DNA of 64,000 bases, taken from assembly GCF_036588685.1 (NCBI RefSeq), contig NC_086381.1, positions 24,304,001 to 24,368,000 of the forward strand. Reading direction: 5' to 3'. The position numbers were made by a program, and so were the translations under genes. The notes beneath the pieces are model-generated. The model made no database searches and was not told where the DNA came from. It saw only the letters and a program-made list of their open reading frames with translations. This document shows positions 4,097 through 37,153 of the stretch, piece after piece (within the stretch, counting starts at the first letter, position 1; each line of letters starts with the position of its first letter). This DNA is from Mytilus trossulus (lineage: Eukaryota).

Positions 4097-4492
4097 AATA
4101 GACCACTTTCGAGTTCATCCGTCACCGGCAAAAAATCGTCAATTATGCACGCCTTTATGACGTCATTTACCAGATAGAGGGGCTCGCCTGTATCCCTGCA
4201 CTATTTACGTTCATCAAGCGTCTAAGTGATCGTTTTTGTGCAGGATAAACTAGAAATAATGGTTGCTCTGTAGGTACTTACTGACAATTCCCTAATGACA
4301 GCAGTGTTGATTGTCTATTTTCAGAATTCAATTTGCCGAATAATTCGTACAATATAGAATTATAATTTTCCAACCACTCGCTCAACATTGTAAGGAAGTG
4401 ACGACGCCCCTAAACGCACAGATGACGGTGATAAAGGCGCGTATAATTGACGAGTTTTTTCCGGTGACGGATGAACTCGAAAGTGGTCTATT
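4097..4492. mobile_element. MITE, about 395 bp, long TIRs (copy 1)
   Basis: TIR AATAGACCACTTTCGAGTTCATCCGTCACCGG...; near-identical inverted copy at 18093-18488; AT dinucleotide flanks are compatible with ISL2EU/PIF-Harbinger-like elements (inference). Confidence 0.85.
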
Positions 4493-7429: not shown

Positions 7430-8010
7430 GGAGTAGATCCGGTAAGGACTCATTTTGGCCTCAAATTTCAGTTTCATCTGACGAAAGATTTTGACCACTT
7501 TTTGAACACTTAAGTTCAAGTTTCACTTGATTCAATTAGTTTAAGTGAAAGATTTTAACTGATTTTGTAATTAAAAACTATCCGATTCAAGCTCAAATAT
7601 GGAAAATCTCTCAAATTTATATGCCAAAAAACGTCACTTAGATGGTTTTTGTCAAAAATGAAAGTGGCCGCATCCGTGTTCATCCACAACTTTTATATAT
7701 GTTTTGTATTATCATAAAATACAACTTACATTTCAATATTAAGGATGAACACGAATGCGGCCACTTTCGTTTTACACGGAAACCGTCTAAAATTTAACTA
7801 AAATGATATAATTTTGAAGATTTCAGTAATTTAGCATGACTTAATGGTGCTACAACCAGATATAGGTGCATTGTATTGTCAAAAACAGCCCGTATTTATG
7901 TAGCAGAATCATTCAACTGTCCAAAAAATAACTAAAAGTTTACATTTAAACAATTTTGTAAAACTGTTATATTTTGGGGTCAAAAAGAGGTCTTACCGGA
8001 CCTACTTTTC
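7430..8010. mobile_element. Non-autonomous DNA transposon with imperfect TIRs
   Basis: GAGTAGATCCGGTAAGGAC... vs ...GTCTTACCGGACCTACT; internal inverted repeat AAAGTGGCCGCATCCGTGTTCATCC (7661-7685) / 7743-7768. Confidence 0.6.
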
Positions 8011-8835: not shown

Positions 8836-9374
8836 TAATTTCATCAACCATCAGACCCTAAATTCACATGAAGAAATATTGGTATATGCGGACTTTTGTT
8901 GGTTGCGTACACAATTGTTATTTGCCAGCTGTTTTCCCTTGTCTGTATACGTACAAACAAGGTCTTGAAGGAAACCTACTGACAATGTACCTCAAAGAAA
9001 ATCGAGAGCAAACCATTTTTACCCTCTTACCAACCAGAGTCTTTGGAAAGTATGATCACTGGTTTAGCAATATGAGAATTCATCCAAACTTGTGTTTGAA
9101 CCATTACACCTGGGATGTGCTGTAAAAACGTGTTTTCACATAGAATAATTTTTACAAGACTGGCATCCTTTGTAGCGACAAACTCCACCCAAAAACTTGT
9201 TTAGATCATCATGAAGAAACCTAAACTTTTTCTTCGGATCATACAATGAGGCGATACATTTTAACGGCGATTCCTGATCTCCCGTTTGAAAACTTATCTG
9301 AAGAGAGTATCACTAGCCCAGTATTCATCACTTCGGCGTTGACCAAAATATCAATTATATTGTCACTTGTATAA

Positions 9375-9960
9375 TTTACCGTCGATGCCTTTGCTGGTGG
9401 ACTGTTAGTCCCCGAGGGTATCACCAGCCCAGTAGCCAGTACTTCGGTACTGGCATGAAAATACGGATGTTTTGTGTTATTAGAATTTGCTGTTACTAAA
9501 TGTTAGAAATTATTATAGATTAGGGATTTATCTCCCTCATGCAAAGCTTTGATTCCTTTCACGGATTTGGCTATACTTTTTGGACCTTTTGGATTATAGC
9601 TCTTCATCTTTTATATAAGCTTTGGATTTCAAATATTTTGGCCACGAGCATCACTGAAGAGACATGTGTTGTCGAAATGCGCATCTGGTGCAGGAAAATT
9701 GGTACCGTTAATGTTATTACCGTTTGTAAAAGTATTTGTTATTCGAAATACTAAGGATTTTCTTATCCCAGGCATAGACTACTTTAGCCGTATTTGGCAC
9801 AACTTTTTTGAATTTTTGTCCTCAATGCTCTTCAACCTTATACTTGTGTAGCTTTCTATATATTTTGATCTGAGCGTCACCGATGAGCAGCTGCCGATGA
9901 GTCTAATGTAGAAGGAACGCGCGTCTGGCGTATTAAATGATAACGCTGGTACCTTTGATA
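9375..9960 (+). mobile_element. Hammerhead-bearing repeat (retrozyme / Penelope-associated non-autonomous repeat)
   Basis: Same family recurs at 13880-14065, 16135-16440, 23035-23590, 26330-26487, 27730-28020, 32739-32792, 35938-36175; carries hammerheads at 9648-9691 and (degenerate) 9874-9931 plus a cUUCGg hairpin at 9435-9454. Confidence 0.75.
9648..9691 (+). ncRNA. Minimal type I hammerhead ribozyme (variant B, intact core)
   Basis: GCAUCA-CUGAAGA-GAC augug uu GUC-GAAA-UGCGCA-UC-UGGUGC: stem I 6 bp, stem II GAC/GUC, palindromic stem III AUGCGCAU, cleavage after AUC (9685). Confidence 0.8.
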
Positions 9961-11711
9961 AATATTGTCATAAATTGGAAGATTCAAAGCATCATTTCCA
10001 CATGATACCATCATCATGGAACAAAGCTGAAGGTATGGGACCAATAGTATATGCCAAGATCCTACGAACATTAGCAAGAACTATAAAGCACGACGAACTG
10101 ATTTTACAGGATATGATATGTGCAACTAAGTCACCTGATTTGCACTTGAGTTTTGGTGTCTTAATCGTATCATCAAAAGTATTGAGAGGGGACTACGACA
10201 TCGGACTTTAGAAGGGGTTACATCCACTCCATGTTTATGTCTGATTAAAAACTCACCTGACATAAAGACAGATTTTATCGTTTCAGACAGATTCAACATA
10301 TCCAATATGTAGGCCGGTGTCCACCTAGCATAGTTCGTCAAGGTAATGAAAAAGTATCGCAACATTGCAGCAATCATTTGCAAATGTATAAAAGCACCAA
10401 CCCAGTCCGTCCAATCTTAAGGTTCTGCAACAATATTTCAACTGCACGAAGAACTATATCCCAAAATGCGAAGGTTGGTAATAGATAGCTTACTAGAGTG
10501 TATTCTGAATTCTTCAAACAATACCTTCAGCGATTTGGGGTGTTTCAGCAAATGAACTGTGACAGTTAAAGAACGCCTTCAATACATTTGGTTGAGAATT
10601 AAACGATTTTTGTCTTTGAATGCTTTTAAATTAAACAAAATAGCCACGATAGTTTGCCTCATATACCAAAGTTAATCCTCGAACACATCTGGTATAAACT
10701 CCTTTACGTTTGAGCAACATCATAAAATCAATTGTCAAATGTTTTTTACAGCATGTTGTTGACCAGCACGTTTTGACATATCTAAACATTGTTTCATAGT
10801 TGAAAATATTATTGCCATGTTGCTGGGCATGGCATCTATAATCGGAGTATAGGCTACAGACGAAATTTCAGATGAAGCCTTTTGTAAGAACCGGTCCAAA
10901 ATGAAACAATTTGTTCAGTGCTTTCTGAAGAAAATGGAATCGAATCTAAGTTTTGCCTCCAAAAAAATACCAAAGACAGGACAGATATATTTCGGTTTTC
11001 CATGAAACAAGACACATTCTTCCCATAAACATTAGAATGAAGAGAAGTTCCATACCGTTCTGATGGCTTGTCGAAAGTTAAACATGCCATAAAATTGGTG
11101 TTCGAATCATTCAAGGTCAAAGAACTTTCTAGTCCCCGTTTGACATTTATGGAACTCATGTGGGCGTTTGATGATTCGTTTTGATACTGACATACAACTG
11201 TAGCCATTGAGTGAAATGCATTTTTACCATCGATTGTTTCAGCATTTAAGTCAATATTTTCTGCTCCCTCTTGTATATTATGACCACCTTTTCTAAATAG
11301 AGCTATCCCATAAGGTACTTAGAATATGTATTGGATTCTGTTTTTAACAAATTTGCTAAACATGTCCGATATCTACGTACTTCACAATAGGATGCACAAA
11401 AACCACGAGAGTTTAAATTTTCAATAAAAAAAAAATAGAGCCAAACTCATGGTGTAATTATAATGCCTAAGCAAGATGAAATGGGGTTAACAGGTTTATG
11501 TTTAAAACAAGTCTGCATTCTGTAATTGCCAGGACTTTTCGCAGTTTGTGTACAGGAAGTTTAGAAACATTTCTAATATTTTTCAATGAACATCAGAATA
11601 ACGAGGAGGTCCAGGTCATATTCATTGAACTATAATGCAAAGCTAAAAATCCTCATTAAAGCTAATTTTTAAGAAATACTGACTTGGAATGGCTTCGAAA
11701 CTTTAAAATTT

Positions 11712-11783: not shown

Positions 11784-12849
11784 AATTATGAAATTATTAA
11801 TGTAATCTAATTTACAAATATTGTAACCACTTCGTAAAAATAATACAGAGTGTGTCTGCTAAACTGAGTGAAAATGGGCAAAATTTAGAAGAAGAAAATT
11901 AAGGAATTCTAGTTTTACATTATGAATAAACAATTAATCTCTGTATAAAATGCAAAATCATATGTGAACAGACCAAAAAAAGTCATAAATTAAATTTTTC
12001 CCCATCTTTTTTCTCTCCATTTTAAATAAAACTGCACCGCATGAGATGTCTACGATCGGGCAAAAAAGTTAGCTTAAGTTATTGGCTTTGCAAAAATATC
12101 ATTTTTAGCCTTCAGGTATGCCGGTCCATTAAAGTCGTAAAATAAGCACCTTTCTCTTGGTCTGTCACTCCACTATCTAGACGTTTATAATTTAATTGCT
12201 GACAAGGTCTGTTCTTTTTATTTTGTTTGAAAACAATTTTATTTTATAAATACTATCTTTCACACGTATACGACTGTTCTTATGGAATTGTACAATTCAA
12301 TAGATTCATATGTAGACTGCCGCTAATTTACAGTATTATTCAATTTCTTTTTTCATTCATTTAGTTGTAAATTGTTTTTAATATTTTGTAAATTGTATTT
12401 TGTAGATTTTGCAGGCTGTTGATCGTACTTTTAGTGAAGAGAATGTAACAACGATTGCTATTTTTTGCGTACAACCTCCCATTATTAATGTTTGTTCACA
12501 TGTGGTTATTATTGTTCGATTGTATTATTAAATGTCTGGGTGCCGCAAATCTATACATCGCATAGAATATTTGTGTTTTGTGTCATTAAGCCTTTTATAA
12601 AAAAAAAATACTTTGGTGAAATAGAACACAAGTGAGAAGGTAATTTTTAGAAATACTGTATAAAATTATTTTTTATGTCATTTGTAAGCGTCAATATAGG
12701 AAAACATCCATGTATTGGTAAGACCGTCTTACGTCAATGAAAAGGATATTTAAGATATTTAAGACTTAGATAACAAAGTTATACACACACATACAATGAT
12801 AGAGATATGCACCACGACTCTGAAAAACATCCAATGTTCTACTGCGTTA

Positions 12850-13720
12850 TCTTAGATAACAATCTCTGCAATTTTGCAGAAACATTAGGACTTTTGAATT
12901 GTCTACGTTTTACAATACTATTCTACATGCTGAATTGAAAGATCGACTTCACCAACAGAGCCTTTTCTATAAATATGGGAATCGTAGATACAAATTTCTT
13001 GTTTTAGGTCATAATAATTCTTATTTTGTGAAGAACCACACTGAAAATACCAGAATACATACTGAGGACGATATTATCAAAATGCTTGACATTTTGATCG
13101 ACAATATATTTGTTGAGTTTGGAGGATTGCTATTTAAGACAGTCGATATTCCAATTGGTACTAATTGTGGACCCCTGCTAGCCGATTTGTTTTTGTATTC
13201 GTATATGAAGCATAGTTCATTCAGAACTTTCAAAAAGGCAAAAAGAAAAAGAAGCTTGCGGAATTCCTTAATTTAACTTATATTGATGATGTCCTATCAC
13301 TGAATAACCCATATTTCAGCCAATACTTGCATCTCATATATCACAGTTCACTTGGAATTGGGGATACTACTGATACTAGAAGGACTGCTTAAACCTTGAT
13401 GGTTTCCTTAATATTAACACAGATGGACGACTGCACACTATAATCTATGACACACGAGACGATTTCAACTTCCTAATTATCTATTTCACATTCTCAGCAG
13501 AAGCATACCATCTGCCCCCTCGTATGGCATTTACATATCTCAGTTGATACGTAATGCTCGTGCATGTTCACACTATACGGGCTTCATATACAGGAGTGTA
13601 CTCCTTACAAAGTTATGAGGAGGAAATATTAAAGATGACACTCCGTTTATTTTATGAACACCATCACGAATTGGTTGATCCATACGATATGTCCTTGTCT
13701 AAACTACATAATGACATTTT
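12850..13720 (+). mobile_element. Degenerate Penelope-like element reverse transcriptase
   Basis: Frameshifted motifs TFELSTFYNTILH, LIDNIFVEFGG, IPIGTNCGPLLADLFLYSY, YIDDVLSLNN, YDTRDDFNF, YGIYISQLIR.ARACS typical of bivalve Penelope-like RTs; followed directly by a hammerhead-family repeat. Confidence 0.8.
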
Positions 13721-14199
13721 TCCGCGTCTTAGATTATGGTTTATTATTCACGCCATCTGGTACCGAACATGACCTATTCCCGAATATGACTATTTTGTTG
13801 TGTGTGAATTCGCCGCATTGTTATAAGCCGTGTCACAACGGTATTTGTTATCCAACATTCATGTATTTAAATACTAAGCATTTGCATATCCCAGGCATAG
13901 ATAACCTTAGCCGTAATTGACACAACTTTTTGGAATTTTTAGTCATCATTGCTGTTTAACTTTATACTTGTTTGGCTTTCTTAATATTTGATCTGAGTGT
14001 CATCGATGAGTCTTAAGTAGATGATTTGTGCGTCTGGCGTATCACATTTTACGCAAGGTATCTTTGAAAACAATTAGCATGTCGAAATGTATTTTTGTAT
14101 TGCTTATTTGTTAGTGTATTTCTCTGTACTGAATGTTCTTGCATTTATTTTCACTGAAGTCTGTCATGTAGTATTGTCATTTTAGTGTTATATTTAACA

Positions 14200-14294
14200 T
14201 TGCAATTAAAGCGCGAGGTTTGAATAGCCACAAAACCAGGTTCAACCCGCCATATTTTCTTAAAATATCCTGTACCAAGTCAGGAAAACGGCAG
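14200..14294 (+). ncRNA. Degenerate twister-like motif (variant with GAGGU/UACC pairing)
   Basis: GAGGT...CAACCCGCC-ATATTTTcttAAAATAT-CCTG-TACCAAGT-CAGG; P3 and P4 intact, P2 imperfect. Confidence 0.5.
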
Positions 14295-15084
14295 TTGTTA
14301 TCTAATAGTTAGTTTCTGTGTGTGATGCATTGTCATTTTTTTTTGGTTCCACTTCAGTGTTTCGTTGTTTTCCTCCCTCTTACAGTTGATGCGTTTCCCT
14401 TAGTTTTATTTGTAACCCAGATTTGTTTTCTCTCAATCGATTAATGACTTTCGAACATTGGTATACCACTGTTGCCTTTATCTAATGTAAATAAACTGAT
14501 CATAGATACAAGGATTAAATATTCATTGGTGAACAAAATCTTCATTCAAATCGTACACCTTCACATTCGTTAACTGCATTGCCATGAATTATATAGAATG
14601 TACCTCCAAAACGAACAATAACAATTTCACAGGTATCGTATCGTTATTTTAATATTTCCTTAAGTTCTTATTATTATATTAAAAATATCAAATGCGAAAT
14701 TGCTACATTATATGCGATGCAATCCTTAATGTGAAGCTATTATTTTGATCTATAAAATAAAAATATACATGATATAAAAAAAAAGATATGGTATGCTTGC
14801 CAATGAGACAACTGTCGGACCAAAATGACACAGACATTAACAACTATATGATGCATGTTTTACTACAAAAGGGGTAGAATTTTAACTTTATTGAAACTAT
14901 ACAAATAAAAGAAAATGGTGCATTTTTCTTCGTTTGTCGTTATAATCTGGTATTATATCATATTCAGCAATCTGTACTTAATTTGACTTTTACAATACAT
15001 TTCGCGTCTATATTTCCAACTTTGAATGTACATATAACCAAACTATAGCAGAAATATGATATGATTTCTGGTGTTCATTCATTT

Positions 15085-15834
15085 TTACCATTTGAAATTA
15101 TCCTCCTCAGCATCGAAAGATACGGATAGATTTTTCTTTAGGTTGAGCGGGCGAGGTCTTGCATTACTGAGTGAAGAGTAATCTGGTGGAGGAGAGTCCT
15201 TTTCTTGTGGTCTCCATTTTGGTTGAATTATTGGCAACATTGAAGACAGTTTACACCTTTTCAGAAATGACATATCAGTTTCCTCTTGTGAATCTTCCTT
15301 TTCCACATCTCCAAAATTGTTTATTTTTTTAAAAGGATGAAAATTATCTTCCCTGAGCAAATATGTTTTAATTTGGTACTCCTGTAACTTCTTGTCCATG
15401 TAACTATCATTTTTAGAACTGAAAGTATCATGTACAGGGCGATTTAAGTCATACGGTGACGATTTATATTCTTTATAATCATATTCACGAATAGAATTCT
15501 CTGGTCCACCAATTGGAATTAGTTCTACATTTGTGTTTCTTCTGGGTTGTTTAATGGATTTCATTTCTTCGTGTTGATCTCTAGTTATGTAATTTGGCTT
15601 ATATTCTTTATACTTATGTTCATGAAAATTGTCATAAGAACGATGTTTTTCGTATAATTCATGAACTTTTTCGTATTCATGAACTCTATTATATTCTTGT
15701 ATATTTTTATTCACACGCAAATGTCCATTAAATGTAAAAATTTCGTATTCTGATAACCTTCTAGCAACATTGTCAAATATTTGTTGTTCCGGACCAACCG
15801 GATATTGAGCTATTCTAGGTCCTTTTCTCTCCAT
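15085..15834 (-). CDS. Uncharacterised low-complexity protein, paralog 1 (about 249 aa from first ATG; may be a terminal exon)
   Basis: 759-bp open frame in AT-rich DNA; shares FxPFKK and DMxFLKxxKLSSMLPIIQPKW with the 21166-21633 ORF; TTATTTGCAG acceptor-like site just upstream of the ATG. Confidence 0.7.
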   Translation of the reverse strand: MERKGPRIAQYPVGPEQQIFDNVARRLSEYEIFTFNGHLRVNKNIQEYNRVHEYEKVHELYEKHRSYDNFHEHKYKEYKPNYITRDQHEEMKSIKQPRRNTNVELIPIGGPENSIREYDYKEYKSSPYDLNRPVHDTFSSKNDSYMDKKLQEYQIKTYLLREDNFHPFKKINNFGDVEKEDSQEETDMSFLKRCKLSSMLPIIQPKWRPQEKDSPPPDYSSLSNARPRPLNLKKNLSVSFDAEEDNFKW

Positions 15835-16153
15835 TTCCTGCAAATAATATTTTGAGATAAAGTAACATCTTCTTGTGGTAACATTTTACAGTAAGTAACA
15901 TTCATTTTTTTCTTTAAGGGTGTGGGTTATTGCGAAAACATGAAGAAGACTTATAGGAATTGGGACGACTGAGAAAACATGAAGAAGACTGATAAACAAC
16001 ATCTGATAGTTCAATCTACTTTTTTGATGTTCTGTTATTACATTATTAGTCCAAAATTTCCCCATAATCGATTATTTTTAAGCGATCTCTACGATCTCGT
16101 CTGAGGTTGCATCACGTTATAAGTCAAACAGCAAATAGTTATCAAAGATACCG

Positions 16154-16264
16154 GGAGTCGATTTCACAAAAAAAAACTTACGACTAACATTGATCGTAAG
16201 TATACTGATTTGTTCATGACTTAAGACCAATCTTAGTCGTAAGTGTTTTTGTGAAATCGACTCC
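16154..16264. mobile_element. About 110-bp palindromic MITE inserted into a hammerhead repeat
   Basis: GGAGTCGATTTCACAAAAA...TTTTTGTGAAATCGACTCC; interrupts the GATACC|GGATT sequence of the host repeat. Confidence 0.75.
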
Positions 16265-16280
16265 TGGATTATAATTTAAT

Positions 16281-16324
16281 ACGCCAGACGCGCGTTTCGT
16301 TTACATAAGACTCATCAGTGACGC
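16281..16324 (-). ncRNA. Minimal type I hammerhead ribozyme (variant A, intact core)
   Basis: Minus: GCGUCA-CUGAUGA-GUCUUAUGUAAAC-GAAA-CGCGCG-UC-UGGCGU; one mismatch in stem II. Confidence 0.75.
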
Positions 16325-18092
16325 TCGGAACAAAATAGTTATAAAGCCAAACAAGTACAAAGTTGAAGAGCATTGGGGTCCCATAATTCCAAAGCCAAAC
16401 AAGTACAAAGTTGAAGAGCATTGGGGTCCCAAAATTCCAAAATAAAAGTTTCATGTTCCATACTTATCGAATAGTATAAGCGAATAAATTGATATGTTAA
16501 TTATTATATTTAATTTATAATGACTGATAAGTGAAGATTGCAGTATTTATGTAAGGACACACATATACATAAGATCGCAACTGTATAAGCGTTATAGACT
16601 AACAACCATTAAATGTAGAAAGATCTAAGAGTTATTAAGATATTTTTATGTAAAAAAAAACAAATAAAAACTGAAAAGTGTACGTATATATTTTCCTTAC
16701 TAACAAAAACAGAATTTTAAGAAATAATATCTCTCTATGTAATACTTACAAGACAAATACTACAGTTAACTCCACTTACATAATGAAGTGACGCAAAACG
16801 AAACAGTAAATATTTCAATGAATTGATCAATGACTCAGTTGATTGAAACTTGTTTGTGATTTCCTTCAGCAAATTCTCAAATTACCAATTATTGGTTTCA
16901 TTGTTAAGCACATAATTTCTCAAATTACAAGCGTACGTAAAGCATGATTGAATCAAGTTATTAGACAATACATAACCGATATAAACAATACAAATAATAA
17001 TGTTTGTTTCGCTTTTAATAATTTAAATTACGTTTAATCTATATTTCAAATATAGAATTGACTCTAGTTGGAAGGAAAACAAAATGGTGAACTAGCTCGA
17101 AATACATGCAATGTCCAAAATGTAAAGTCTTATTTTGCAGATGAAATACTTCCTCGAAAAAGTTTTGATCTGCCTACTTAATATTTTTACTACATCTCTG
17201 TTTATCTAGTTTCCAAGACAAAACGCAAAAACGTTAAAATTGGTCAAAATTGTCATTTACGGCGATACCTGCTTTCAAAAGTTGTCTGATTTTTTCCAGA
17301 TATCTACAGCAACGAATTTGGCACCAACATTATTTTTTCTGTAAAACTACTATACTTTTCGTGATAAAGACACTATCATGTCTTTTTTTCACCCTTTGTT
17401 CTATTATTACTATCTTGGCAGTTATATATGTTTGCTTGATAGCAGTATCATCAAATTTGATTATAACAGTGGACTCCCTCTGAACAAGTGTTGGTCCCAA
17501 TTGACTGGTATTTTCAAAAGATTCGACATTTTATGAGCTAAGAAATGAATACAGACAAAAATTAGGAGCAATCAGAAGTGGCACTGGTCCATTTGGCAAT
17601 GTTATCTTGAAACAAAAATAAAAAAGCAAGGTCTTATTTAGAAGATTGGAAGAGTAAAAATTCTGAAAAGAAGAAAAATAAGAACCCTTTAAAATGTATT
17701 GGAAATCGATAAAATGTGCAATTGTCTCGTCAGCTTTACTAGTCACGATGAATTTTTCCATGTTGTAAGTCTACAATAATAAGGTATTAGTTCGTACATC
17801 ACATACAATTACTGTTATGGTAAATGAAAATCAAAAACAGGTTAGACAGTACAACTAACAAATCATGCTATATCGTTTTTTATATAGACTAGACCGTTGG
17901 TTTTCCCGTTTGAATTGTTTTACACTAGTAATTTTGGGGCCCTTTATAGCTTTTTGTTCGGTGTGAGCCAAGGCTCCGTGTTGAAAATCGTACATTGACC
18001 TATAATGTTTTACTTTTATAAATTATCATTTGGATGGAGAGTTGTCTCATTAGCACTCAAATCAAATCTTCCTATATCTATAGACCGAACAT

Positions 18093-18488
18093 AATAGACC
18101 ATTTTCGAGTTCATCCGTCACCGGAAAAAACTCGTCAATTATACGCGCCTTTATCACCGTCATTTGTGCGTTTAGGGGCGTCGTCACTTCCTTCCAATGT
18201 TAAGCGAGTGGTTGGAAAACTATAATTCTATATTGTACGAATTATTCGGCAAATTGAATTCTCAAAATTGACAATCAACACTGCTGTCATTAGGGAATTG
18301 TCAGTAAGTACCTACAGAGCAACCATTATTTCTAGTTTATCCTGCACAAAGACGATCACTAAGACGCTTGATGAACGTAAATAGTGCAGGGATACAGGCG
18401 AGCCCCTCTATCTGGTAAATGACGTCATAAAGGCGTGCATAATTGACGAGTTTTTGCCGGTGACGGATGAACTCGAAAGTGGTCTATT
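18093..18488. mobile_element. MITE, about 395 bp (copy 2, inverted relative to 4097-4492)
   Basis: Same TIRs and internal sequence as copy 1 in reverse orientation. Confidence 0.85.
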
Positions 18489-19722: not shown

Positions 19723-20508
19723 TTAAAATGTTGATCTTTTCAATGAATAAATATAGCTACTAATAAGAAGATCTATAGAATGAAAAGGATCTTCCAAAAT
19801 AGATTGCCTTTGTGAGTTTGCTCTCGTCACTTTATGATTATATTCCTTAGACGGACGATTACGTGGTGAAAATGATGATGTCTTTGGTTTCAGATCAAAT
19901 CTTGTCTGCTTTACAACCGGTAAAATTAAACGCGGTTTTGTTATCCTACTTATAAACACATCACTAGAATTCAAACTTGCTCGACGTTTCTGAGATCGCT
20001 TCGTAGGAGGTAACGGGTCCTTGGATTTAGTATGCATCACAACTGGTAGAACTACGGGAAGCGCGGGCTCGAGCACTGGCATTGTTTTATCAGTCGTTCT
20101 AATTGAAACTTTATCATCTGTCTTTCTAACCGAAACTTTATCATCGGTCTTTCTAATCGAATCTTTATCGGCCGTCTTTCTAATCGAATCTTTATCGTCT
20201 GTCTTTTTAACAGAAACTTTATCATCTGTTTGCTTTTGGGGGGATTTAGGCTTCTCCTGATTCTTGATTGAGGGCGTTTTAGTTGTTTTTTTCTTAGTTT
20301 CGCTGTCATTTTGTTTATTATTGCCGAATAAGTCATTATTTCCCTCAAACAGGTCGTTTTTTTTAAATGGATCGAAATTTTGCTTGTTTAGTTTATAAGA
20401 TTTCGGTCTTTCATATTCACGTGTCTTCTGTTGTATTGGATCTTCTAATTGAACGTCTAATGCATTGCGGTAAGAACTTAGATTATAAGGTTTAGGTTTA
20501 TATTCCAT
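19723..20508 (-). CDS. Uncharacterised Lys-rich low-complexity protein, paralog 2 (261 aa)
   Basis: Intronless 786-bp ORF; N-terminus aligns with the 21166-21633 ORF (NLSS...EDP...K.REY.RPK.Y...FDPFKK.DLFE); internal 9-aa repeat KTDDKVSIR. Confidence 0.7.
   Translation of the reverse strand: MEYKPKPYNLSSYRNALDVQLEDPIQQKTREYERPKSYKLNKQNFDPFKKNDLFEGNNDLFGNNKQNDSETKKKTTKTPSIKNQEKPKSPQKQTDDKVSVKKTDDKDSIRKTADKDSIRKTDDKVSVRKTDDKVSIRTTDKTMPVLEPALPVVLPVVMHTKSKDPLPPTKRSQKRRASLNSSDVFISRITKPRLILPVVKQTRFDLKPKTSSFSPRNRPSKEYNHKVTRANSQRQSILEDPFHSIDLLISSYIYSLKRSTF
20090..20230 (-). repeat. Coding 27-bp tandem repeat (KTDDKxSxR x5)
   Basis: In-frame repeat inside paralog 2. Confidence 0.8.
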
Positions 20509-21165
20509 GACGAACTTTATATGTCCATAATAAATAAAAGCAAACTTATTATTCCATCTTAATCTTTCTTTATCAAACAGTCATAATAAGTCTTGTTGAA
20601 ACAAATAGTATAATATTTCCTGAATTATTATCCAAAAATTCGCAAACTTTTCTACGATTTGCTACAAACTGTATCTAAATAAGTTCTTAACGTAATATGT
20701 TAGTTGATACTAAATCGCCTTGCATTAATATTCGATAAATATTTTTTTACAAAAAATGCATACGTGCGTTTCAAGTCTTGCAATCAGTTTAAAAATCGTA
20801 AACGCTCGCTAAATGTATGACGTTTAAAAGCATGTCATATCGATTAGGGAACTAATTATAGTCGTTCTTTCTGTGTTATTGTATTGTTATTGAGTTACTT
20901 GATTCGTCTTTTGAAAGGTGATCCCCACAATCTGAGTTTGTTTACGTTAGGTACGGTCAGGAACTGTAGGTGGCATGTTATTCCTGACCATACAAAACAA
21001 AATTAAAAAGTGATCTTCAAATTTGACTTTGTTTACGTTAGGTACGGTCAGGAACTGTGGTATGATCAGAAACTGCAGATGGTATGCTATTCCTGACAAA
21101 ACAAGTAAAAGAATTCGCGATAAGCTCACATAGCATTACAATTCAGTTTCAATTTACTGTTCACA

Positions 21166-21633
21166 TTAGGGATGTTGTATCCATTTTGGTTGAATAATTG
21201 GCAACATGGATGATAGTTTGTAGTTTTTCAGAAATTCCATGTCATCATCTTCATCATCTTCATCATTTTCTATGTCATTTGGCTTTTCATATTGTTCTTG
21301 CATTTCTAGGGGTGTCTGTTGCTTCTCTGGCATCTTCGGAGGATGTTTTGGTTCTTCTTGTTCTTGTATGGGCGAGTTTGTTGATTTGTGTTCCCTTTGT
21401 TTCTGTATAGTCATGGTTGTTTTATCTTCACGTTCATTCTCTGAACTGCTTTCATATTTTGGTTGCGTTTCCTCAAACAAATCTACCTTTTTAAAGGGAT
21501 CAAAAGCTTGGCTGGTGCTTGCATAAGGTTTTGGTCTTTTGTATTCCCGAGGTTTGTGTTCAAAAGGATCTTCTACTTTTCTATTAAATGTTTCTTCAAC
21601 AGAACTCAGATTTAATTCAGGTTTATCCTCCAT
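21166..21633 (-). CDS. Uncharacterised acidic low-complexity protein, paralog 3 (155 aa)
   Basis: Intronless ORF with both family motifs: EDPFEHKPREYKRPKPY...FDPFKKVDLFEE and DDMEFLKNYKLSSMLPIIQPKW. Confidence 0.7.
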   Translation of the reverse strand: MEDKPELNLSSVEETFNRKVEDPFEHKPREYKRPKPYASTSQAFDPFKKVDLFEETQPKYESSSENEREDKTTMTIQKQREHKSTNSPIQEQEEPKHPPKMPEKQQTPLEMQEQYEKPNDIENDEDDEDDDMEFLKNYKLSSMLPIIQPKWIQHP

Positions 21634-23034
21634 AATGTCTGTGGAGACTCGGTTACAAGATATTTAGTGGTAGTTTCTTTTTACTTTAAACGGATTGTCA
21701 ATATAATTGATATAATAGTAACTTCATGTGATAATCCTAATATCATTTCATTTCTCGAATAAAACTCATGAATACGTTGCTTGAAATTTCAAACGTTATT
21801 TGGAATGGTCGCACAGTCTCTGTTCCTAATAGTTCGAATAATTCTTTTTTTTCTGATTCCAAATCCAAAATGTTAGTTTGTTTTCATGTTGTTAGTAGAC
21901 AATTAATGATTTTTTTATAAACTATCCCGCACTTTATTCGTTAAATATTTATTTTCAGACTTCAACGGATTCACCTGATAAGTATCATATTTTCAAGTGC
22001 ATACTAAGCGGTAATCTATAAAATCTTCCTTTGTTTTATTGTGATATTAATAGTCCCTCTAAGGTCAAGTAACAATATATGGGTCATGTCACAGGATTTT
22101 CTACACAACTGTGGATTGGTAAATTTGACATAAAGATTAAGAAATAATAAAATACCATAGTTTTTTTTTTTTATTATTTTCTAAAATATTATTGAATGTA
22201 TTATTTTTGAAATAGATAAATAAGTATATGAAACATTATTAAAAGACGGTGTCAAAAATATTTTTTTGTTTCATGATAATGCATATTGTATATGGGTTGT
22301 GTTGAAAAAATAGGGGAAAATGACACAGAGGTCAGTGATATATTATGTAGAGTAATATATCACTGACAGCTGTGGATAGTTAACGTTGAATTGATAGTAA
22401 ATAGCAAATACAAGTTATTTGTAGTATACTAATGTTCTTATGATACAGAAAAACGTGATAATAATTAAAACTGAGAGAAGACAAAAAAAAAAAGATTTTG
22501 GAAAAAATGCGAAGGCAGCACAAATCTGTCCTGTCCCCTAGTACCTTTGTTTCATAATAATAAACATTATAAAAGTGAATGCCTTTTATATGAATTTGGT
22601 TAAAAAGAGGGGGGAATGCAACAGTTGAAAAATTCACCCATCTGTAGGTTTAAAATTATTTTGTTATCTTAAAAATATTTCTTATTCAAATATTTTTTTC
22701 CCAGTATTAAAACATTTCTTCCTTCTTTTTAAGGGTGTGCGTGGGGGAGATTATGAGAAACAAATCCCATGTAGACAAAATTGTATTTACTATTTCTGCC
22801 TATACATACATTCTTGCAAGCGATGATAATAGAATGTGTCTACGCAAAAAAAAAATAACTGAATTCTTCTTCGATAAAAATGCGATGAACGCAGCATATT
22901 TTATATGAAGCGCTTTCAACACTAATAACATACAAAACAACTCTTAAAGTTACATTTGTATGCTGCGGCCATGAGATTGAAAGTTATTTATAGTTTGGTT
23001 TGGTTTCTTATTCCTCGTTGTGTTAATTTATAAA

Positions 23035-23590
23035 AGGTACCAGTCTTAATACGCCAGATGCACGTTTCGTCTACATAAACTCACCAGTGACGCTCATATC
23101 AAAATAGTTAGAAAGCCAAGCAATTACATAGTTGAAGAGCATTGAGGACCAAACATTTCTAAAAAGTTGTGCGAAATACGGTAAATAAACTCATTATAGA
23201 TACCAAGTTTTGCCAAATACAGCTAAGGTAAGCTATGCCTTAGGTAGAAAAGCCTTAGTATTTCAAAAAATTCTAAAATTTGTAAACAGTTAATATATAA
23301 ATATAACCATATCAATGATAGTTCATGTCAGCACCAAAAGCGCTGACTACTGGGCTTGTGATATCATCGGGGAAATAAATCTCCACCAGCAGTGGCATCG
23401 ATCCAGTGGTTGTAACTCATCATATATATCATGACTAAATTTTGTAATACGCCAGACGCGCGACGTATGCCTAGTATTAGAAAATCCTTTGTATTTCGAA
23501 TAGTTCATATACTTTTTCAAACAGTTGAATTATAAATTGATCATATTATTGATATTCATGTCAACACCGAAGTGCTGACTACTGGGTTTG
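23035..23590 (-). mobile_element. Tandem hammerhead-bearing repeat (about 1.4 units)
   Basis: Mutated hammerhead at 23051-23093 (CUGGUGA), hammerhead 3' remnant at 23449-23462, two copies of the hairpin motif (23325-23348, 23558-23580). Confidence 0.7.
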
Positions 23591-26409
23591 GGTCATAATA
23601 ATTTTATTGGAAAATAAAATCTAATGTTGTGTCTCGCGATTGTTAATTTTGATTTTGGTATATAGAGTGGAGCGTCTTGTTTTGTGAGGATGTTTGGTCA
23701 ATCATCTTTTGAAAATTATCATATTCAGAGTGTATTTGGAATGCTCGACGAAGTTTTACTATTGTACACTGAGTTTATTATTAATGAACATCTGTTATGT
23801 TCCGAATTTTCATAAATATAACTAACTAACAGTAACTGGCCGATTTATAATATTTTAATTCATTTTATTCTATGCAGTTTGCTGCTGAAAAGAGATTATA
23901 CAAGTTGAAATTGTATGGCTAATTTTACTAACTGCTGTAACAAATTGCACAAAATTTACTCAAACTATATTTAGTTATTTTGTTTTTAATACATTGTTAA
24001 ATCTAATATACTGTATTTGTCTTTTTGTTTTCTATAGAATATTTTTTTCTAAATATTGATATTTAAGGGGAGATAATAGCGTGTATTTAAACAGCACTAA
24101 AGTAAAATTCTTTAAGAAATCAAACTAAACTAAACGTTTCTCATCATAATAAAATAATTAAGAAACCCATTTAAGTGTATATATATGTTGTGACATCATT
24201 TTATCCAAAATATGATTTGTACAAAAAAAATCGTACACGTTATATTTTGTTTCATACAAATTGTAATATGTACAAAATTCACTTATAATTAGTACAGAAA
24301 ATTATCGTATGGATTTTATCATACAAAAAGCATTGCAACTATAGAATTTTTATTCAATGACCACTTAATAAACATTATCGCTATTTTGTGCATTTTTCCT
24401 TTGATCTTTTTTTGTGATAATTTTCATATCATGCTTCTGGCTTGAGATGGAAAAATTATCGCTAGAAACTAAGGAGGCCACGTGGCGTTGCTAACGAAAT
24501 TGACTTTGAAATTGACAACGTCGTCATAGGTAAAATAGCGATAAGCAGATTATCATTGGTCATCTCAACTCGATTGCTTTTCTCACTTTCGCTGTACCAG
24601 CTGAAGCGAGAAAATCAATGTCGTTGAGATAATCAACGATAATCTATAATTATTTACAAAACACAAAAAATATATACATGATACATGCATTCATGCCAGT
24701 ATATATTCCGAGAGTGATAGTACAACAGAAATTGGCCCCATGCAGTGATAATTCTGATGTTATAATGTAAAATGACCTGGATAACAATTCTGATAGTATA
24801 AAAGACTTAATTGGCCCCAGTGATTATTCTAATATTATAATAGAAATCGAACCAAGTGACAATTAGAATTACACTGACGTTGAAACGCCAATCATACGTG
24901 CCAGGAACCGTGCGCTGTCTTGCCAACTGATCTTAGCCGAATATCTAACGAAGGAAACGATAATGTCATTATACCAATTCCTAAGTATGATATTGCCCCA
25001 ATTGATCAACGAAATATTTTATGTGTAACTATTAGAATGTGGGTACCGCGTTGGAATATAGCTGTAGGAATTTTTAACAGGATATTTTATAGAATGTAGC
25101 TGTTAAAGATTCATTTTCATTCGCAGCTTCGGTTTCTGAGGTTCAACTTTCTCTACGTGAAGCAGATAAAAAGTTTTTAAACATTGGTGATCAACGATTT
25201 ATTTCATGTAAATGACAAGAGGAAGCATTGAGTACAATTCTCGATGCCATATGTAATTCAACAAGTGAACATACTCAAACAAATGATGCAGCACTATTCG
25301 TGTATTTTGTAAATAATGGTTATTGGGTGATAATTAAATACAAATTATACAGTTTGTATCAATGTTGTTTTACAACAAAATCCATATTGTAAACTATCGT
25401 ATAAGTTATAAGTGAATTTTTAAAAAAATTGTACTAATTCTTATTTTCTCACTAGGAAGATATATAATGAAATTAATCTAAAAAGAAGTCTATGAGATTG
25501 TGTGCCCAGTTAGTAAACTCACGAGAGTATGGATTGGAAGTGTTTACGTGAATGCATCTCGTTCGCTGATTCTTTCGAGACTACTGAACTGAACTGAACT
25601 TATATTAAATTGACCGTTCCAGCTCAGAAAATTGTGAATTACATTGTTTTTTCTTCTATATTGAACTACCGTTAAACGGACATCATGACGTTTAGAATAT
25701 CAAAGATTCATTACATATAATCCACGCGAGGAACATGTTCAAAAAAGTTCCTTCAAAGAATAAAGGCACATTCAATAATCCGACAAGAGAGCCAGGAAAA
25801 GCAACAATAAGTAAACATAGAATCAAACAGAAAGACGACATTCCAGCAAAAGTACCTCCAAGAAGAATATCTCCTTTAAAAATGTTGAGAGATTGAGGAT
25901 GAATTTAAGAAGAACGTATTGACAAGTCCAATATACCCTTAACGTCAGCCTTTGTGTTTGTGCAAAATAAAGATCATTTGTGGCGGCTATGTGTTGATAA
26001 CAGGACATTTTAATGATAAGACGATCAAAGATGTGTATTCGATACCTAGACTAGAGTACACACTGAGTGGATCTTAGTGAATTTTAGTTTTGATCCTGAG
26101 TATGGCTAATCACGAGATGCCTATGAATCTAGCAGCGTCCGAAAAGATTGCGATTTCTACAGCCAGATGTGGTTTATAGATAAAGGAAGATGTGGTGTGA
26201 GCGCCAATGAGACAATTCTCCATCCAAATAACAATTTATTAAAGTAAACCATTATAGGGCAATGTACGGCCTTCAACACGGAGCTCACAACAAACAACAA
26301 GCTATAAAGGGTCCTAAAATTACTATTGTAACACAACTTTTTTGGAATTTTGGATCCTCAATGCTCTTCAACTTTGTACTTATTTGGCTTTATAACTATT
26401 TTGATATGA

Positions 26410-26453
26410 GCGTCACTGATAAGTCTTATGTAGACGAAACGCGCGTCTGGCGT
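26410..26453 (+). ncRNA. Minimal hammerhead (variant A) with core mutation G8A
   Basis: GCGUCA-CUGAUAA-GUCuuauguaGAC-GAAA-CGCGCG-UC-UGGCGU; perfect stems but CUGAUAA instead of CUGAUGA. Confidence 0.65.
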
Positions 26454-26590
26454 ACTAAATTATAATCCTGGTACCTTTGATAACTAAAGTTAAACATTTC
26501 AAACGGCAAAACCAACGGTCTAATCTATATAAAAAAGAGAAACGAGAAACACGTATAAATTACATAAACAAACGAAAACCACTGTTTATC

Positions 26591-27480: not shown

Positions 27481-27943
27481 TCATTTAAAATCTTCTACCG
27501 TAGGATTATGTGTATAACAATTCAAAAGATATAAGTGATTTGAATAAACACCGTTCTGACACAAGCGATCGCATCTATTGTATTGATCAACCGTGCAAAT
27601 GTCGAAGTTTACAAATTGATAGTTAATAACGAAAACGCACACGTGGAATTGAATTCTGGAGATTTTTTTGGAAAAGTAATGGACTGAACAGGTAACATGA
27701 TGTGGAAAAGGTATAATCGAAAGCAAACTTTGCCTGAGGGAGTTAAAACTATAGTTTCATAATTATTTCAAAATTTATTAACGGACAATCTTAGTAAAGT
27801 TTGTTAAATTGTGTCAGTACCGAAGCACTGACTACTGAGCTGATGATACATTAGGGGGCTGATAGTCCACCAGCAGAGGTATATACCCAGTGATGTAAAA
27901 AAAAAAAAAAAATAGGAAAACAACACGTTTTTGATAATTTATT

Positions 27944-27985
27944 GCGTCCGAAGCGCTTTTCTGGATTTACCTTCATCTGGAACGC
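27944..27985 (-). ncRNA. Minimal hammerhead (variant C) with core mutation
   Basis: Minus: GCGUUC-CAGAUGA-AGGuaaauCCA-GAAA-AGCGCU-UC-GGACGC; half copy with intact CUGAUGA at 28506-28526. Confidence 0.6.
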
Positions 27986-30900
27986 TCAAAGCCAAAATTA
28001 TGAAATCCGAAGTACCGAAAAGAATAATTCACATGAGATAATATCATAGAATATATATAATCATATAAAATATCACAACATAAAACAATTTGTTATTGTT
28101 ATTGTTATTATTTATTAGTTGGTTTAATTCTTTTAAAGTTGCATATCTTATATAAGAAAATTAAGAAGAGGAAAAGAGAATAGCTGGACTACACGTCCAT
28201 TGTGAATATTATTGAGAGTAACGTTACACAACATAGTACGTATTAGCAGTACGGAAGCATAGACGACAATTTGATTTTGACTAGTAATAGGGAAAAAATA
28301 AAATCACAAAAATACTGAAAAATTCAAAAAAGGAAAGTCCCAAATCTAATTGTAAAATAAATCAACAGCATAAACACATCAAACGAAATGATAACATCTA
28401 TCATCCTCTTGACTTGGTACAGACATTTTCTTAGGAAATGGAAGTAAATTTTAGAGTAAATTTAACACAGATCTATCTGATTTGTGTAAGTGACAAAACA
28501 TAATTTTACCTTCATCAGGTACGCTCGAGACCATTGATTACTCGGAAAAAATCAGTGATGAGACACATTTAATGAATTAATGTTGAGGTATTATAGTTGT
28601 CAATAACCTTTGAATATTTCCTTTTCGAATAAAGTTCAATAATTATTATTAAAAATATATATATCATATTGCATTTTAACTTGATTAATTGTTGGGTTAG
28701 GAACAACAATTTTCCTCATACAGAAAAAAATCTTTTTTTCTTAATTGAGTCAATATCAGGGGAGAAAACTCTGTCACATTATGTATTTCGATATATAACC
28801 ATATATACATATCATCTGGGATTATTCATCAATATATTATGTCTCAGATATCATATGTATATAGTGTTACATTGAGAGATGTATAATGTCTACAAACATG
28901 TTATTCATAATTTAATAACGAGAGGCCTATCAAGATCTATCAAGTCTCACGCATTTTCATGATTATTTGACTGTATTTTGCTTTGATCTATTGTTTTATT
29001 TTCTCTTTGATCCTTACAATTTTGTCAAATCTCACACATTTGAAAAGCTCTGTAAGTGGCGGTACCGAAGAAGTGACACATTAATTACTTTTAATTAATA
29101 ATAGATTACTTTGATAAACAAACAAATCAATCCAGCTGGAGCTAAACTTATAATTCCTATAATGTTTTCAATATTTTCCGTGTGACAAATATTATGAATA
29201 TTGATTTTTATACTTCCATGGTTTATTTTCCTTCACGTTTTCTTTGTTCTAACATTATTTCGCCTAGAAGCACGATTCGAAGAATTTACTAGAAAAGTAC
29301 TGCCATTAGTAAGAATTTTGTTTATAAAGTTTTGCAAAAATGTGTTTGTTTTTATATTGGGAGAGTTTTTTTGTGTTCACAATAACATTTTATTTATTTT
29401 ATCATAACACTAAGTCAGTCACCTTAGCAAAGATTCTTCATGTTTACATGATAGCACGGGTTTTTTTCTGCAGATCTTGAAAGAACATTATATAAATATT
29501 AGTTATGAAAGAGTTTTATTTTCTTGTTGTTGTTGTATACTAGTATATGATTAAAAGACAATGTATGCTGCAGAGGCTTTGATGTGTTTTCAAAGGGATT
29601 TATGAAATTTTGTATTTTGTTAGACTAAATAACACTTTGGTGCACTATTCTTGGCGAGCATAATGTAGGTTATAGTTCTTGTTCACACTTTATTAAGAAA
29701 AGGGTCAAAATTGATAGATTAATTTTACTGATATATCGTCTGAGAAAGAAGAAGAACTTATTTGATAATAAGCGATATTACAGAATATTTACTAAAAAAT
29801 AATTAAACACACACTTTTTTATTTTAGAAAAAAAACCATGAATATTCTAAAAGCACCTATGGATGAATCGTGTTTAAAAATGATTAAAGACTGTTTCTTT
29901 ACAAAAATAATCTAAGACTTTAAGATTACAAGGGTCTAACAAGATTATCATAACGTAATAGCAAATATGGCCGTGTACGACTTATTAAAAGTTATATGTA
30001 TCAAATAGTTCGTTTGTATGTTTGTTGGTATTCTTTTTTGTCGCACTACAGTGTTCCTCGCCTGTTGTTCCTTTGTTTGCCTCTTAAAGTTCTCCTACTT
30101 TTATTTTGTTTTCTCTCAATTGATTTATGAATTTTGAACACCGGTATACTAATGTTGCCTATCTTAATTTGTATAGAGATTAAGCTGAATCATAACCAAA
30201 CTGGTTACTTATAAAGCCGACATTTACTGAGTTGAATGGAATGTTAGAAGTTATAGCAGTTATACGTTGTGTTAGGTTGGGGATGCTGGGAATCGTCTCT
30301 CATAAGTATTTAATTAAAAAAGATGTCGTCAGATGTCTACAAGCTTTTATGGTATGATGAAGGTGGCTATGAAGTGTGGATAATAATTTGTTTTTGAACG
30401 ATACAAAATGTAACAATTTCCTTATTTGGCCATTAATGTCAGGATAGAGATCCCTGAATGGTTGAATATATCTTAAACACATTCACATATAAATGCTGAC
30501 CTAACTCGACATTGTTTGCCTATATAAAAGCTGTACTAAGCTTGGAATGATACGTCTCACCATGTCGACAAAGATTCAATTGGACAAGTGCTTGACAAAA
30601 GCTTCTTTATAAACAAAATTATATGCCCTAGTAAAAATGTTGGTCCAATGTATCATGTTTAACTTTGAATGTCTTCCCATAGTACCATAGAAAATTGTAA
30701 AAGAAAAAATCTACCTGAATTGAATTGAGATAAATCTCGGTATTTGCATTTTAAGGAGTCAAGAGATATCAGTATAGAAATTCCATTGTAACAGTGCAGA
30801 AAATCCTATAGAAGAAGATTCCAATGAAAAACATCGTTCAAATTAAACATTTGAAAAAAGAAATACAAGTGTTAAATTTAATGGATCTTGTAAAAGCCAA

Positions 30901-32628: not shown

Positions 32629-32980
32629 ATACCATGAACAAGTAAAAAGTGAAACTCATCCTCTTATAGTTGATGCGTTTCCCCCAGTTTTGGTTTGTGG
32701 CTAAGAATTTTTGATTTATGACTTATGAACACCGATATAACGCGCGTCTGGCGTATAAACAAAATTTGTCCTGGTATCTATGATGAGTTTATATACTACT
32801 GTTGCCTTTACATAACCATGGCAAAACCGATAGTTACAGATATCAGCTATTGAGTTCCATATTTGTGGTAATTCCAATGTAAAAGTTTTCTACGGTTTTG
32901 TCAAGATGATGCCAATGTAAAACTTGTATTCAAATCATAGGACATGTGTATAAAGAAACACAAGTGTGTAATGTTATGTA

Positions 32981-33308: not shown

Positions 33309-33348
33309 TGAATATTAAATTGTCACATTTTTAAATAATTTGTTTATA

Positions 33349-36300: not shown

Positions 36301-37153
36301 TTTACATAACTGTTTTTTTTTTCGATTTCAGAATATGGGCACAATGGCGGTTGCAGAAGGAAACGAAGACCAATTACAGATAGCCGTGTTACACTTTCCA
36401 GTAATGGCAGTTATTGATGCTAGTCTTCAGTCATTTCAGTTGTATCGATCTGGGGTCTACGATGAACCAAAGTGCAGTTCAACAAAACTTGATCATGCGG
36501 TTCAGATCGTCGGATATGGTTCTGAAGGTGGAAAAGATTATTGGATCGTCAAAAATAGCTGGGGTATGTTTTTTGTAGGCCTGGATAAGGCTTACAGATT
36601 ACAGAATGTTGGGTCATGAACACAAAATTAAATGGGATAAGAAACAAATAGAGAAAAGAAGGTCTGCAAATAGATAACAGAGAACTACGGAATACAAGAA
36701 ATTATAAAGAAAATGCATGAATGGTCATTTATAAAATAAATGTAGGATCCCTTTCTAGAGGCTCATATTTATAATAATTATCAAAGGCACCAGGATTATA
36801 ATTTAGTAAGCAAGTGCATCAAACGGATGTCGATATTTGTATATTCTGACTATTTACATAAAGAATCTTATAAAATTATTTCATGTAACTGATGTCTCAC
36901 GCTATTCCGGTAAAATTTACAATATCATATCAACACTGATTTTTTTTTAAGAAAAGACCCTGAATTTTATTTCAATTGTCATTCTCTTTTAAAAAATCGA
37001 AACACAGCAGTGATGTAAAGCAGCAAAATAGTGAAACAGAGAATAATTTTGTATGTTTTAGGTGTAAACTGGGGAATGCAAGGTTACATACTAATGAGAA
37101 GAAATAAGAATAACCAATGTGGTATTGCCTCTGATGCCACCTATCCTGTATAA
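33349..37153 (+). CDS. Cathepsin L-like papain-family (C1A) protein, catalytic Cys replaced by Val (probable pseudoprotease), 311 aa
   Basis: Exons 33349-33579, 34643-34811, 35613-35824, 36332-36563, 37062-37153; all GT-AG, phases 0,1,0,1 consistent. Signal peptide, I29 propeptide (ERFNIN-like E-R-W-N-V-N, AMNEFAD), [32 protein letters not shown]. Confidence 0.92.
34843..35468. repeat. Long nested inverted repeat (foldback) in intron 2 of the cathepsin-like gene
   Basis: 34843-35012 is the reverse complement of about 35302-35468; inner arms 35015-35057 / 35131-35173. Confidence 0.8.
35976..36019 (-). ncRNA. Minimal type I hammerhead (variant A, intact core), antisense in cathepsin intron 3
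   Basis: Minus: GCGUCA-CUGAUGA-GUUUUUUGUAGAC-GAAA-CGCGCG-UC-UGUCGU. Confidence 0.7.

Follow-up and report, generated by a model that had tools for sequence, protein, structure and literature searches.

Three variants of the hammerhead ribozyme, designated A, B and C, recur across the 64-kb stretch of Mytilus trossulus DNA analysed here (the window), each with a palindrome in stem III. Which element carries and moves these ribozymes, and what does the palindrome do? In the accessible parts of the published work, the mobilising partner of animal retrozymes and the way in which it recognises them are addressed only by pointing to Penelope-like elements (PLEs) as candidates. A sequence-only reading of the window had proposed a neighbouring reverse transcriptase (RT) as that partner and had assigned the palindromes to dimer formation.

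Results

Hammerhead motifs in the window

The palindromic stems III described for variants A, B and C are all present. Variant B (9648-9691, plus strand), reported as intact, has the full core, a perfect 6-bp stem I, a perfect 4-bp stem II and the 8-nt palindrome, with a stem III of 2 bp closed by a palindromic tetraloop, and it is the sole copy in the window in which the core and all stems are perfect. Its cleavage is predicted to occur after the C at 9685 (C17). Two A copies had likewise been called intact, at 16281-16324 (minus strand) and 35976-36019, and this holds for their cores but not for their stems, as the former has a C.A mismatch in stem II and the latter a U.U mismatch in stem I. 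The four A copies reported as mutated do show defects: the copy at 26410 carries the core change G8A, that at 23051 carries A6G and a broken palindrome, that at 9874 combines U4C, a 14-nt insertion and A13G, and that at 13997 is a decayed hammerhead. Variant C (27944-27985) has its palindrome, but the core carries U4A and stem II comprises only 2 bp stacked on an A.A mismatch. Self-cleavage by variant C appears doubtful because of this atypical stem II, and the C core is intact in metagenome loci L001 and L002 only.

A structure descriptor was run on the window and on 30 dinucleotide shuffles of it. Perfect-core matches numbered three in the window against a shuffle mean of 0.03 (maximum 1), and matches with a palindrome of at least 8 nt numbered four against 0.03 per shuffle; a loose setting returned 10 matches against 2.7 in shuffles, about six of the 10 looking like chance. 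A covariance model recovered eight whole hammerheads with E <= 4e-6, four of which came from its own training set. Together with 3'-half fragments at 23445 and 32739 and two tail-only fragments located by BLAST, these agree with the earlier estimate of about ten whole or partial copies. An Rfam search of the window gave no match at the gathering score: Hammerhead_1 scored three A copies at 25.9-30.6 bits with a cut-off of 34 and missed B and C. The consensus stem III of Rfam RF00163 is that of variant A.

Four of the 12 A/B pairs differ on both sides, and these fall in all three stems, but the count is not above a shuffle control (351/500, not significant), and its weight is limited because all four pairs stem from the single A/B split. 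Minimum free energy folds of the isolated hammerheads lack the three-way junction (z near 0), and in folds of the full circle the leader hairpin described below persists while the hammerhead does not form; such absence is usual for hammerheads and was counted for neither side.

The earlier designation of these motifs as minimal type I hammerheads is right as to the type. Core CUGANGA/GAAA/UH and three helices with helix I open are present, and A and B have helix I of 6 bp, helix II of 4 bp and helix III of 1-2 bp with a palindromic loop. The palindrome is conserved, as had been stated for Mytilus-type retrozyme hammerheads, and finding such a stem III in mussel hammerheads is nothing new in kind. 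The term minimal does not apply. Min-HHRs, as far as described in the portion of the source available (Cervera and de la Pena 2014, PMC4209133), share with A and B the type I topology, the palindromic 15/16 region and a proposed dimer form. However, they are without helix III, their helix I is short and their helix II long, A9 is followed by an extra base, and they lie in the pLTRs of ORF-bearing PLEs, whereas A and B have helices of 6/4/2 bp without the extra base and sit in ORF-free tandems.

Three subfamilies of a non-coding repeat

A, B and C are the hammerheads of three subfamilies of a non-coding repeat of ~350 bp. A metagenome search with a pattern that left six stem-III positions free returned 10 matches in nine loci, eight of them perfect palindromes (four A, two B and two C), one an A/B intermediate with a G-U wobble (L009) and one a broken palindrome. 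One locus is a B dimer of period 350 (L007) and another a partial A trimer of period 355 (L004); spacing is ~390 in the window tandem at 23026-23586 and 402 in L015. The tandem units thus fall within the 150-450 bp of retrozymes with one type I hammerhead each, and they have a GC content of 0.38 and a longest ATG-initiated ORF of 72 codons, consistent with low-GC non-coding elements. Over the whole unit, A and B share 70% identity. Further retrozyme families with the same hairpin and 6-nt or 4-nt stem-III palindromes were seen in other hosts' DNA in bacterial metagenome-assembled genomes (MAGs) (L013:983-1030, L010:4842-4889, L012 and L015); locus L011 duplicates L010, and L014, which lies in GC-rich bacterial DNA, was rejected as matching by chance. 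A generic core pattern run over G001-G005 matched mostly bacterial noise and was set aside. Patterns for the hammerhead, hairpin and loop variant had no match in viral contigs, and phage sequences gave none.

Size, GC content, lack of an ORF, expression and hammerhead families all liken this repeat to the known Mytilus non-LTR retrozyme, and it likely is that element. The M. galloprovincialis retrozyme, in the accessible part of its description (Cervera and de la Pena 2020, PMC7229834), forms expressed, ORF-free tandems of 350-390 bp with type I hammerheads and GC under 45%, as here, and comprises two similar hammerhead families, plausibly A and B; three subfamilies and a likely fourth hammerhead variant are found here. 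A motif search of the PMC4918200 supplements matched only a figure label.

The copy with the best-preserved hammerhead is a solo B monomer (9383-9716, plus strand) that covers 339 of 350 unit bases and shares 95.6% identity with the tandem unit of L007. It is inserted in an older A copy on the same strand, whose 5' part lies at 9303-9377 and whose 3' part, at 9719-9966, contains the dead hammerhead 9874-9931 and stops 6 nt short of the leader-stem position. A 7-bp TSD (9376-9382 left, 9717-9723 right; the one copy checked for this feature) exceeds the 4 bp above which retrozyme duplications lie and shows that B inserted independently. The B unit carries the leader hairpin (9381-9439, plus strand), with the 5' strand of its outer stem truncated, followed by a UUCG-capped hairpin (9435-9454, plus strand) whose stem sequence varies among A, B and C with pairing kept. 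Since it has a single hammerhead and a dead neighbour, the solo B would be unable to release unit-length RNA.

Window copies are mostly dead. A 5'-truncated A copy (26332-26486, plus strand) holds the G8A hammerhead at 26410-26453, and a degraded partial A tandem with ~390-bp spacing (23026-23586, minus strand) holds a 3'-half hammerhead (23445-23462), a hairpin (23343-23415) and the mutated hammerhead 23051-23093. The C-family copy (27721-28012, minus strand) has its hammerhead followed by a leader hairpin at 27828-27899. A 3' fragment of the A family, with hammerhead 3' half and tail, lies at 32739-32793 (plus strand), and tail-only fragments lie at 14491-14523 and 36771-36814 (both minus strand). 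The A copy with the 16281-16324 hammerhead spans ~16140-16442, its tail split by a MITE-like element of 110 bp (16154-16264) that is bounded by terminal inverted repeats, has a possible 3-bp target duplication and may be PIF/Harbinger-like. The A copy with the 35976-36019 hammerhead (35936-36177, minus strand, 5'-truncated) is flanked by two exons, to which it is antisense, of a cathepsin L-like cysteine protease of the papain family with an I29 propeptide (33319-36619, plus strand).

Elsewhere in the window there are two 396-bp elements, 97% identical and with 65-nt terminal inverted repeats, that represent a young MITE (4097-4492 and 18093-18488), and a hairpin-forming inverted repeat with 73-nt arms, probably also a MITE (7638-7790). 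Three long low-complexity ORFs on the minus strand (15085-15885, 19723-20580 and 21166-21663) are partly similar and have a common C-terminal motif. Tandem repeat arrays of 135, 160 and 261 bp occupy 44044-46460, and FG-repeat-rich exons at 48031-48435 and 49299-49790 (minus strand) presumably resemble a nucleoporin such as Nup50.

A leader hairpin shared with Naiad elements

All three unit types carry a predicted hairpin of ~70 nt that lies 39-47 nt after the cleavage site, and at ~90% identity between A and B it is better conserved than any other part of the unit. One long bulged hairpin is predicted in five of six units tested, the sixth (L016) being weak (z -0.5). In the hairpin alignment 91.5% of cells are paired and four of 22 pairs are changed on both sides, a covariation of limited weight as a single division, with mussel-type units on one side and those of the L012/L015/L016 type on the other, accounts for most of the changes. 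The invariance of the central 10-nt motif in L010-L016 is built in, because this motif was the search key for them. The hairpin had no Rfam match at E <= 10, and an HDV-like or twister fold was rejected by eye, no P1.1 or core that matches their consensus being seen.

What else carries this hairpin? The central motif occurs 12 times in the searched part of the Naiad supplement of PMC8557442, and 11 of these occurrences, bivalves and hemichordates included, lie at or near the Naiad consensus start, the twelfth lying inside an ORF; published starts were compared by short motifs and by eye only. The A, B and hairpin-adjacent motifs of the window are absent from that supplement as searched, and its single match to a C motif is unrelated. 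A model built from retrozyme hairpins only (R2) was run on six Naiad-bearing loci. It matches the Naiad leader of locus L018 (G002:C49), just before the ATG, with 44.7 bits and E 1.1e-9; the other five, none shown with a complete 5' end, gave no match. L018 has an uninterrupted Naiad frame of 1019 codons and an 84-bp exact terminal repeat. It lies in a bacterial MAG as host contamination and is another host's DNA, not part of this genome; the same assembly also has the retrozyme monomer L013. By eye, the hairpins of L012, L015 and L016 resemble oyster-type Naiad starts. Viral contigs held one uninformative 14-residue Naiad match.

The hairpin also marks where copies end. Copy 3' ends fall within -8 to +2 nt of its outer stem in seven of nine window copies and six of seven copies outside the window, with a mode of -6. 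Among the exceptions, the 16281 copy ends there once the MITE is removed, L009 is cut by a contig end, and the C copy runs through the hairpin and ends mid-unit. DNA contigs of run X1 break off at the common end point. The terminal repeat of the L018 Naiad ends at -6 relative to its own hairpin, so that retrozymes and Naiad have both a terminal cis element and an end position in common. In L015 the hammerhead lies about twice as far upstream and the copy nevertheless ends at -5, which indicates that the end follows the hairpin and not the hammerhead; an offset computed for L012 stemmed from a spurious block and was left out. Moreover, copies run 33-44 nt past C17, implying that the template was a circle or an uncleaved multimer rather than a cleaved linear monomer.

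One could argue that the hairpin has some other job, as a promoter, leader or undescribed ribozyme, or that it is a relic, and that a different PLE or a LINE copies the retrozymes. The lack of an Rfam match would be consistent with this, hammerhead-bearing PLEs do co-occur in mussels according to the consulted part of PMC7229834, and the hairpin can occur in a tandem array of its own: at L010:4900-6740 (G001:C10), right behind one hammerhead, ~23 copies follow one another at a 74-bp period, as either a hairpin-only satellite or a long-read assembly artefact. However, the identical end offset in retrozyme and Naiad copies, the tracking of the hairpin by the L015 end and the fact that no part of the unit is better conserved make this explanation unlikely.

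The neighbouring reverse transcriptase

The RT placed by the sequence-only reading at 12850-13720 was recovered as a 5'-truncated, frameshifted remnant at 12824-13721 (plus strand). It covers only the C-terminal third of the RT, shares 60% identity with protein P0044 over 119 aa and stops where P0044, P0036 and P0075 stop. These three proteins have a GIY-YIG domain before the RT (Pfam matches below cut-off) and the DKA and CxC motifs, by which the available text of PMC8557442 recognises Naiads; further Naiad traits are an insertion in the fingers and the lack of any domain C-terminal to the RT. Judged by this likeness, the remnant is probably a dead Naiad, and its 5' end is missing. Fragments resembling LINE RTs of CR1/L2 type were also seen by eye, with no Pfam match, at 53620-53925 (plus strand) and 55803-56372 (minus strand).

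Is the remnant then the partner of the hammerhead beside it? A 5'-truncated A copy with the decayed hammerhead 13997-14040 occupies 13869-14075 on the same strand and starts ~150 bp past the RT stop. This arrangement could be taken to mean that an autonomous PLE has the hammerheads as its terminal motifs and that RT and hammerhead are one element, all the more as hammerheads are known from PLE pLTRs (PMC4209133) and Xenopus retrozymes resemble pLTRs, in the parts of those reports available. Yet in three of three contig runs the depth of contigs drops away from the RT to the A block, 494 RNA reads at 13869 run on into A-unit sequence rather than Naiad UTR, and no piece joining RT and block is among the 24 listed of >75,000. 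Similarity to the Naiad UTR returns beyond the block: 14204-14284 is 75.6% identical to the 3' UTR of L018, in the orientation of the RT, and contig ends pile up at 14481, so that 14076-14481 (plus strand) is likely the rest and 3' end of the interrupted UTR. The A unit forms tandems without an ORF, and no hammerhead was found in the intact L018 Naiad. A single element is thus very improbable, and a nested insertion best accounts for the adjacency. Because the A copy appears to interrupt the 3' UTR of a probably dead Naiad, adjacency proves no partnership; the earlier proposal of a Penelope-class RT as mobiliser is likely correct, but the neighbourhood from which it was argued is not evidence for it.

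RNA reads

In RNA run X21, 2816 of 8.7 million reads map to the B dimer with a ~3-5-fold strand bias towards what is, under the usual library convention, the ribozyme-sense strand. The A tail-to-hairpin junction is carried by 536 X21 reads, and C-type junction reads are also present. Retrozyme transcription is thus seen at the level of the family, as the RNA runs may come from related species. Tail-to-head junction reads are as compatible with uncleaved tandem transcripts as with circles. Read ends do not pile up at C17 in the two raw-read runs, a result of little weight, as the libraries were fragmented.

Palindromic stem III and the case for dimers

That such hammerheads work as dimers had been treated as established. 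For mussel it is not, since in the accessible part of PMC7229834 a cloned monomer self-cleaved at ~0.1/min. Energies nonetheless favour pairing between copies: isolated stems III are predicted at +2.4 to +4.7 kcal/mol as hairpins and at -10.1 to -13.3 kcal/mol as homoduplexes, and heteroduplexes at -7.8 to -8.9 kcal/mol. Pairing of each variant with its own type only, raised in the earlier reading, is not predicted for A and B, whose heteroduplex reaches -8.9 kcal/mol against homoduplexes of -13.3 and -10.5 kcal/mol. The switch of the loop-closing pair among C-G, U-A and A-U is real, and it suits a hairpin no less than a dimer.

Reads reveal a further state of the loop. In B, the outer loop bases change G->C and C->G at equal per-strand counts (240/595 and 240/602 in X21, 21/202 and 21/217 in X24), and the changes appear in 30 and 38 DNA contigs of X1; their coupling is read from equal counts rather than phasing, among the 40 of 185 differences listed. 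The resulting CCGG loop stays palindromic (read differences at L007:819,822,825). On either side of it there is a set of 222 loose ends, and the two sets match, which suggests a separate element with its own flanks. The variant accounts for ~40% of B-like hammerhead reads in X21 and ~0.5% of X1 DNA contig depth, and C17 is often A in X21. It is likely a fourth, palindromic hammerhead variant, which favours dimer pairing, the alternative being that the change creates a pair closing a 2-nt loop.

How, then, is the palindrome to be explained? We consider it probable that dimers fold within tandem transcripts, the monomer fold being weak and the fold between neighbouring units of one transcript being stronger. 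Were the ribozymes to act as monomers only, the palindrome would be a by-product of a 2-bp stem and a favoured tetraloop. In C(UU)G loops the outer loop bases pair across a 2-nt loop, and the outer bases here could do likewise, which would also account for the paired loop change; the 15.2-16.2 covariation is equally compatible with a hairpin, and the sources, as far as available, report cleavage of monomers for the mussel retrozyme and for most others of invertebrates. What makes monomer action alone rather unlikely is that the two central loop bases can pair with themselves in all of A, B and C, in the loop variant and in the shorter form in L013, where stem III is a single pair at +6.0 kcal/mol as a monomer. 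At the other extreme, obligate dimers could use the palindromes as a selected code of self and non-self among A, B, C and the CCGG variant. Homoduplexes exceed heteroduplexes in stability by 2-5 kcal/mol, the monomer stem is unfavourable, and by inspection the loop variant would mismatch B twice. However, a cloned mussel monomer cleaves, six pairs are kept in the A/B heteroduplex, the L009 stem is intermediate between A and B, and a palindromic loop III is general in repeat hammerheads in the accessible part of their description (Perreault et al. 2011, PMC3088659). Moreover, arrays are homogeneous, so that position alone gives homotypic pairing and no code is needed. For these reasons there is no support for dimers that are obligate or for a family code under selection, and such a code is decidedly unlikely. 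The repeat hammerheads of PMC3088659, for which a dimer fold is proposed, resemble those here in their palindromic stem or loop III; what differs here is that several palindromes coexist among close relatives, with a likely compensatory change at the level of the loop.

Discussion

The evidence combines into a model to which we assign a probability of roughly three in four, in which hammerhead subfamilies of a retrozyme act in tandems that self-cleave and circularise, and a Naiad RT starts cDNA synthesis ~6 nt upstream of the hairpin. Self-cleavage of tandem transcripts is predicted at the hammerheads, and the released units would be circularised by ligation, presumably by tRNA ligase; cleavage, tRNA-ligase circularisation and abundant circles have been reported for mussel retrozymes (PMC7229834, as far as available). 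A Naiad protein would then bind the Naiad-like hairpin of the unit, and its endonuclease would nick the target, where a target-primed, internal start ~6 nt upstream of the hairpin may set the end of the copy. From there the RT would read back through the hammerhead and across the cleavage site, and the outcome would be 5'-truncated copies with a common 3' end.

An internal start has precedent in another clade. In the Poseidon element PAc of Anolis, within the consulted part of the report (Frangieh et al. 2024, PMC11167929), RT initiates internally at a stem-loop downstream of the hammerhead, the start site sets the genomic ends, and insertion does not need hammerhead cleavage. Poseidon differs from Naiad in clade, in its C-terminal endonuclease and in a signal that lies within the ORF, and in that text no non-autonomous partner was tested. 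Naiads (Craig et al. 2021, PMC8557442) have the leader hairpin and the -6 end in common with the retrozymes here; unlike these they are autonomous, and they are reported without canonical hammerheads in the accessible text, where stem-loop and hairpin have 0 mentions and no non-autonomous partner is described. The available account of the M. galloprovincialis retrozyme (PMC7229834) contains no Naiad-like hairpin, fixed 3' end or named partner clade and only suggests PLEs. A link in end sequence between retrozymes and PLEs is drawn by a study of Xenopus retrozymes as derivatives of PLE pLTRs (Li et al., bioRxiv 10.64898/2026.07.22.740005). In the part of that preprint available, no molluscs are sampled, Naiad appears only in coral, the link is to Repbase Xenopus PLE pLTRs, and no common RNA structure or start site is defined. 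A Naiad-retrozyme link was not found in the literature searched, subscription papers and some supplements (of PMC7229834 and the 2026 preprint) aside.

We lean somewhat towards a broader reading, in which bivalve retrozymes parasitise hammerhead-less Naiads by means of the 70-nt structure together with palindromic-dimer hammerheads whose loops fall into partly orthogonal types. The structure, common to Naiads from mussels to hemichordates, would load the RT and fix its start 6 nt upstream. A 70-nt structure with a fixed start offset, held in common with an intact single-ORF Naiad, makes an assay of the Poseidon type applicable, with L018 as the candidate ORF for biochemistry, and the palindrome series provides natural alleles for tests of monomer against dimer hammerheads. 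For Naiads, a dominant and mechanistically unstudied retroelement clade of bivalves, the hairpin would be the first cis signal.
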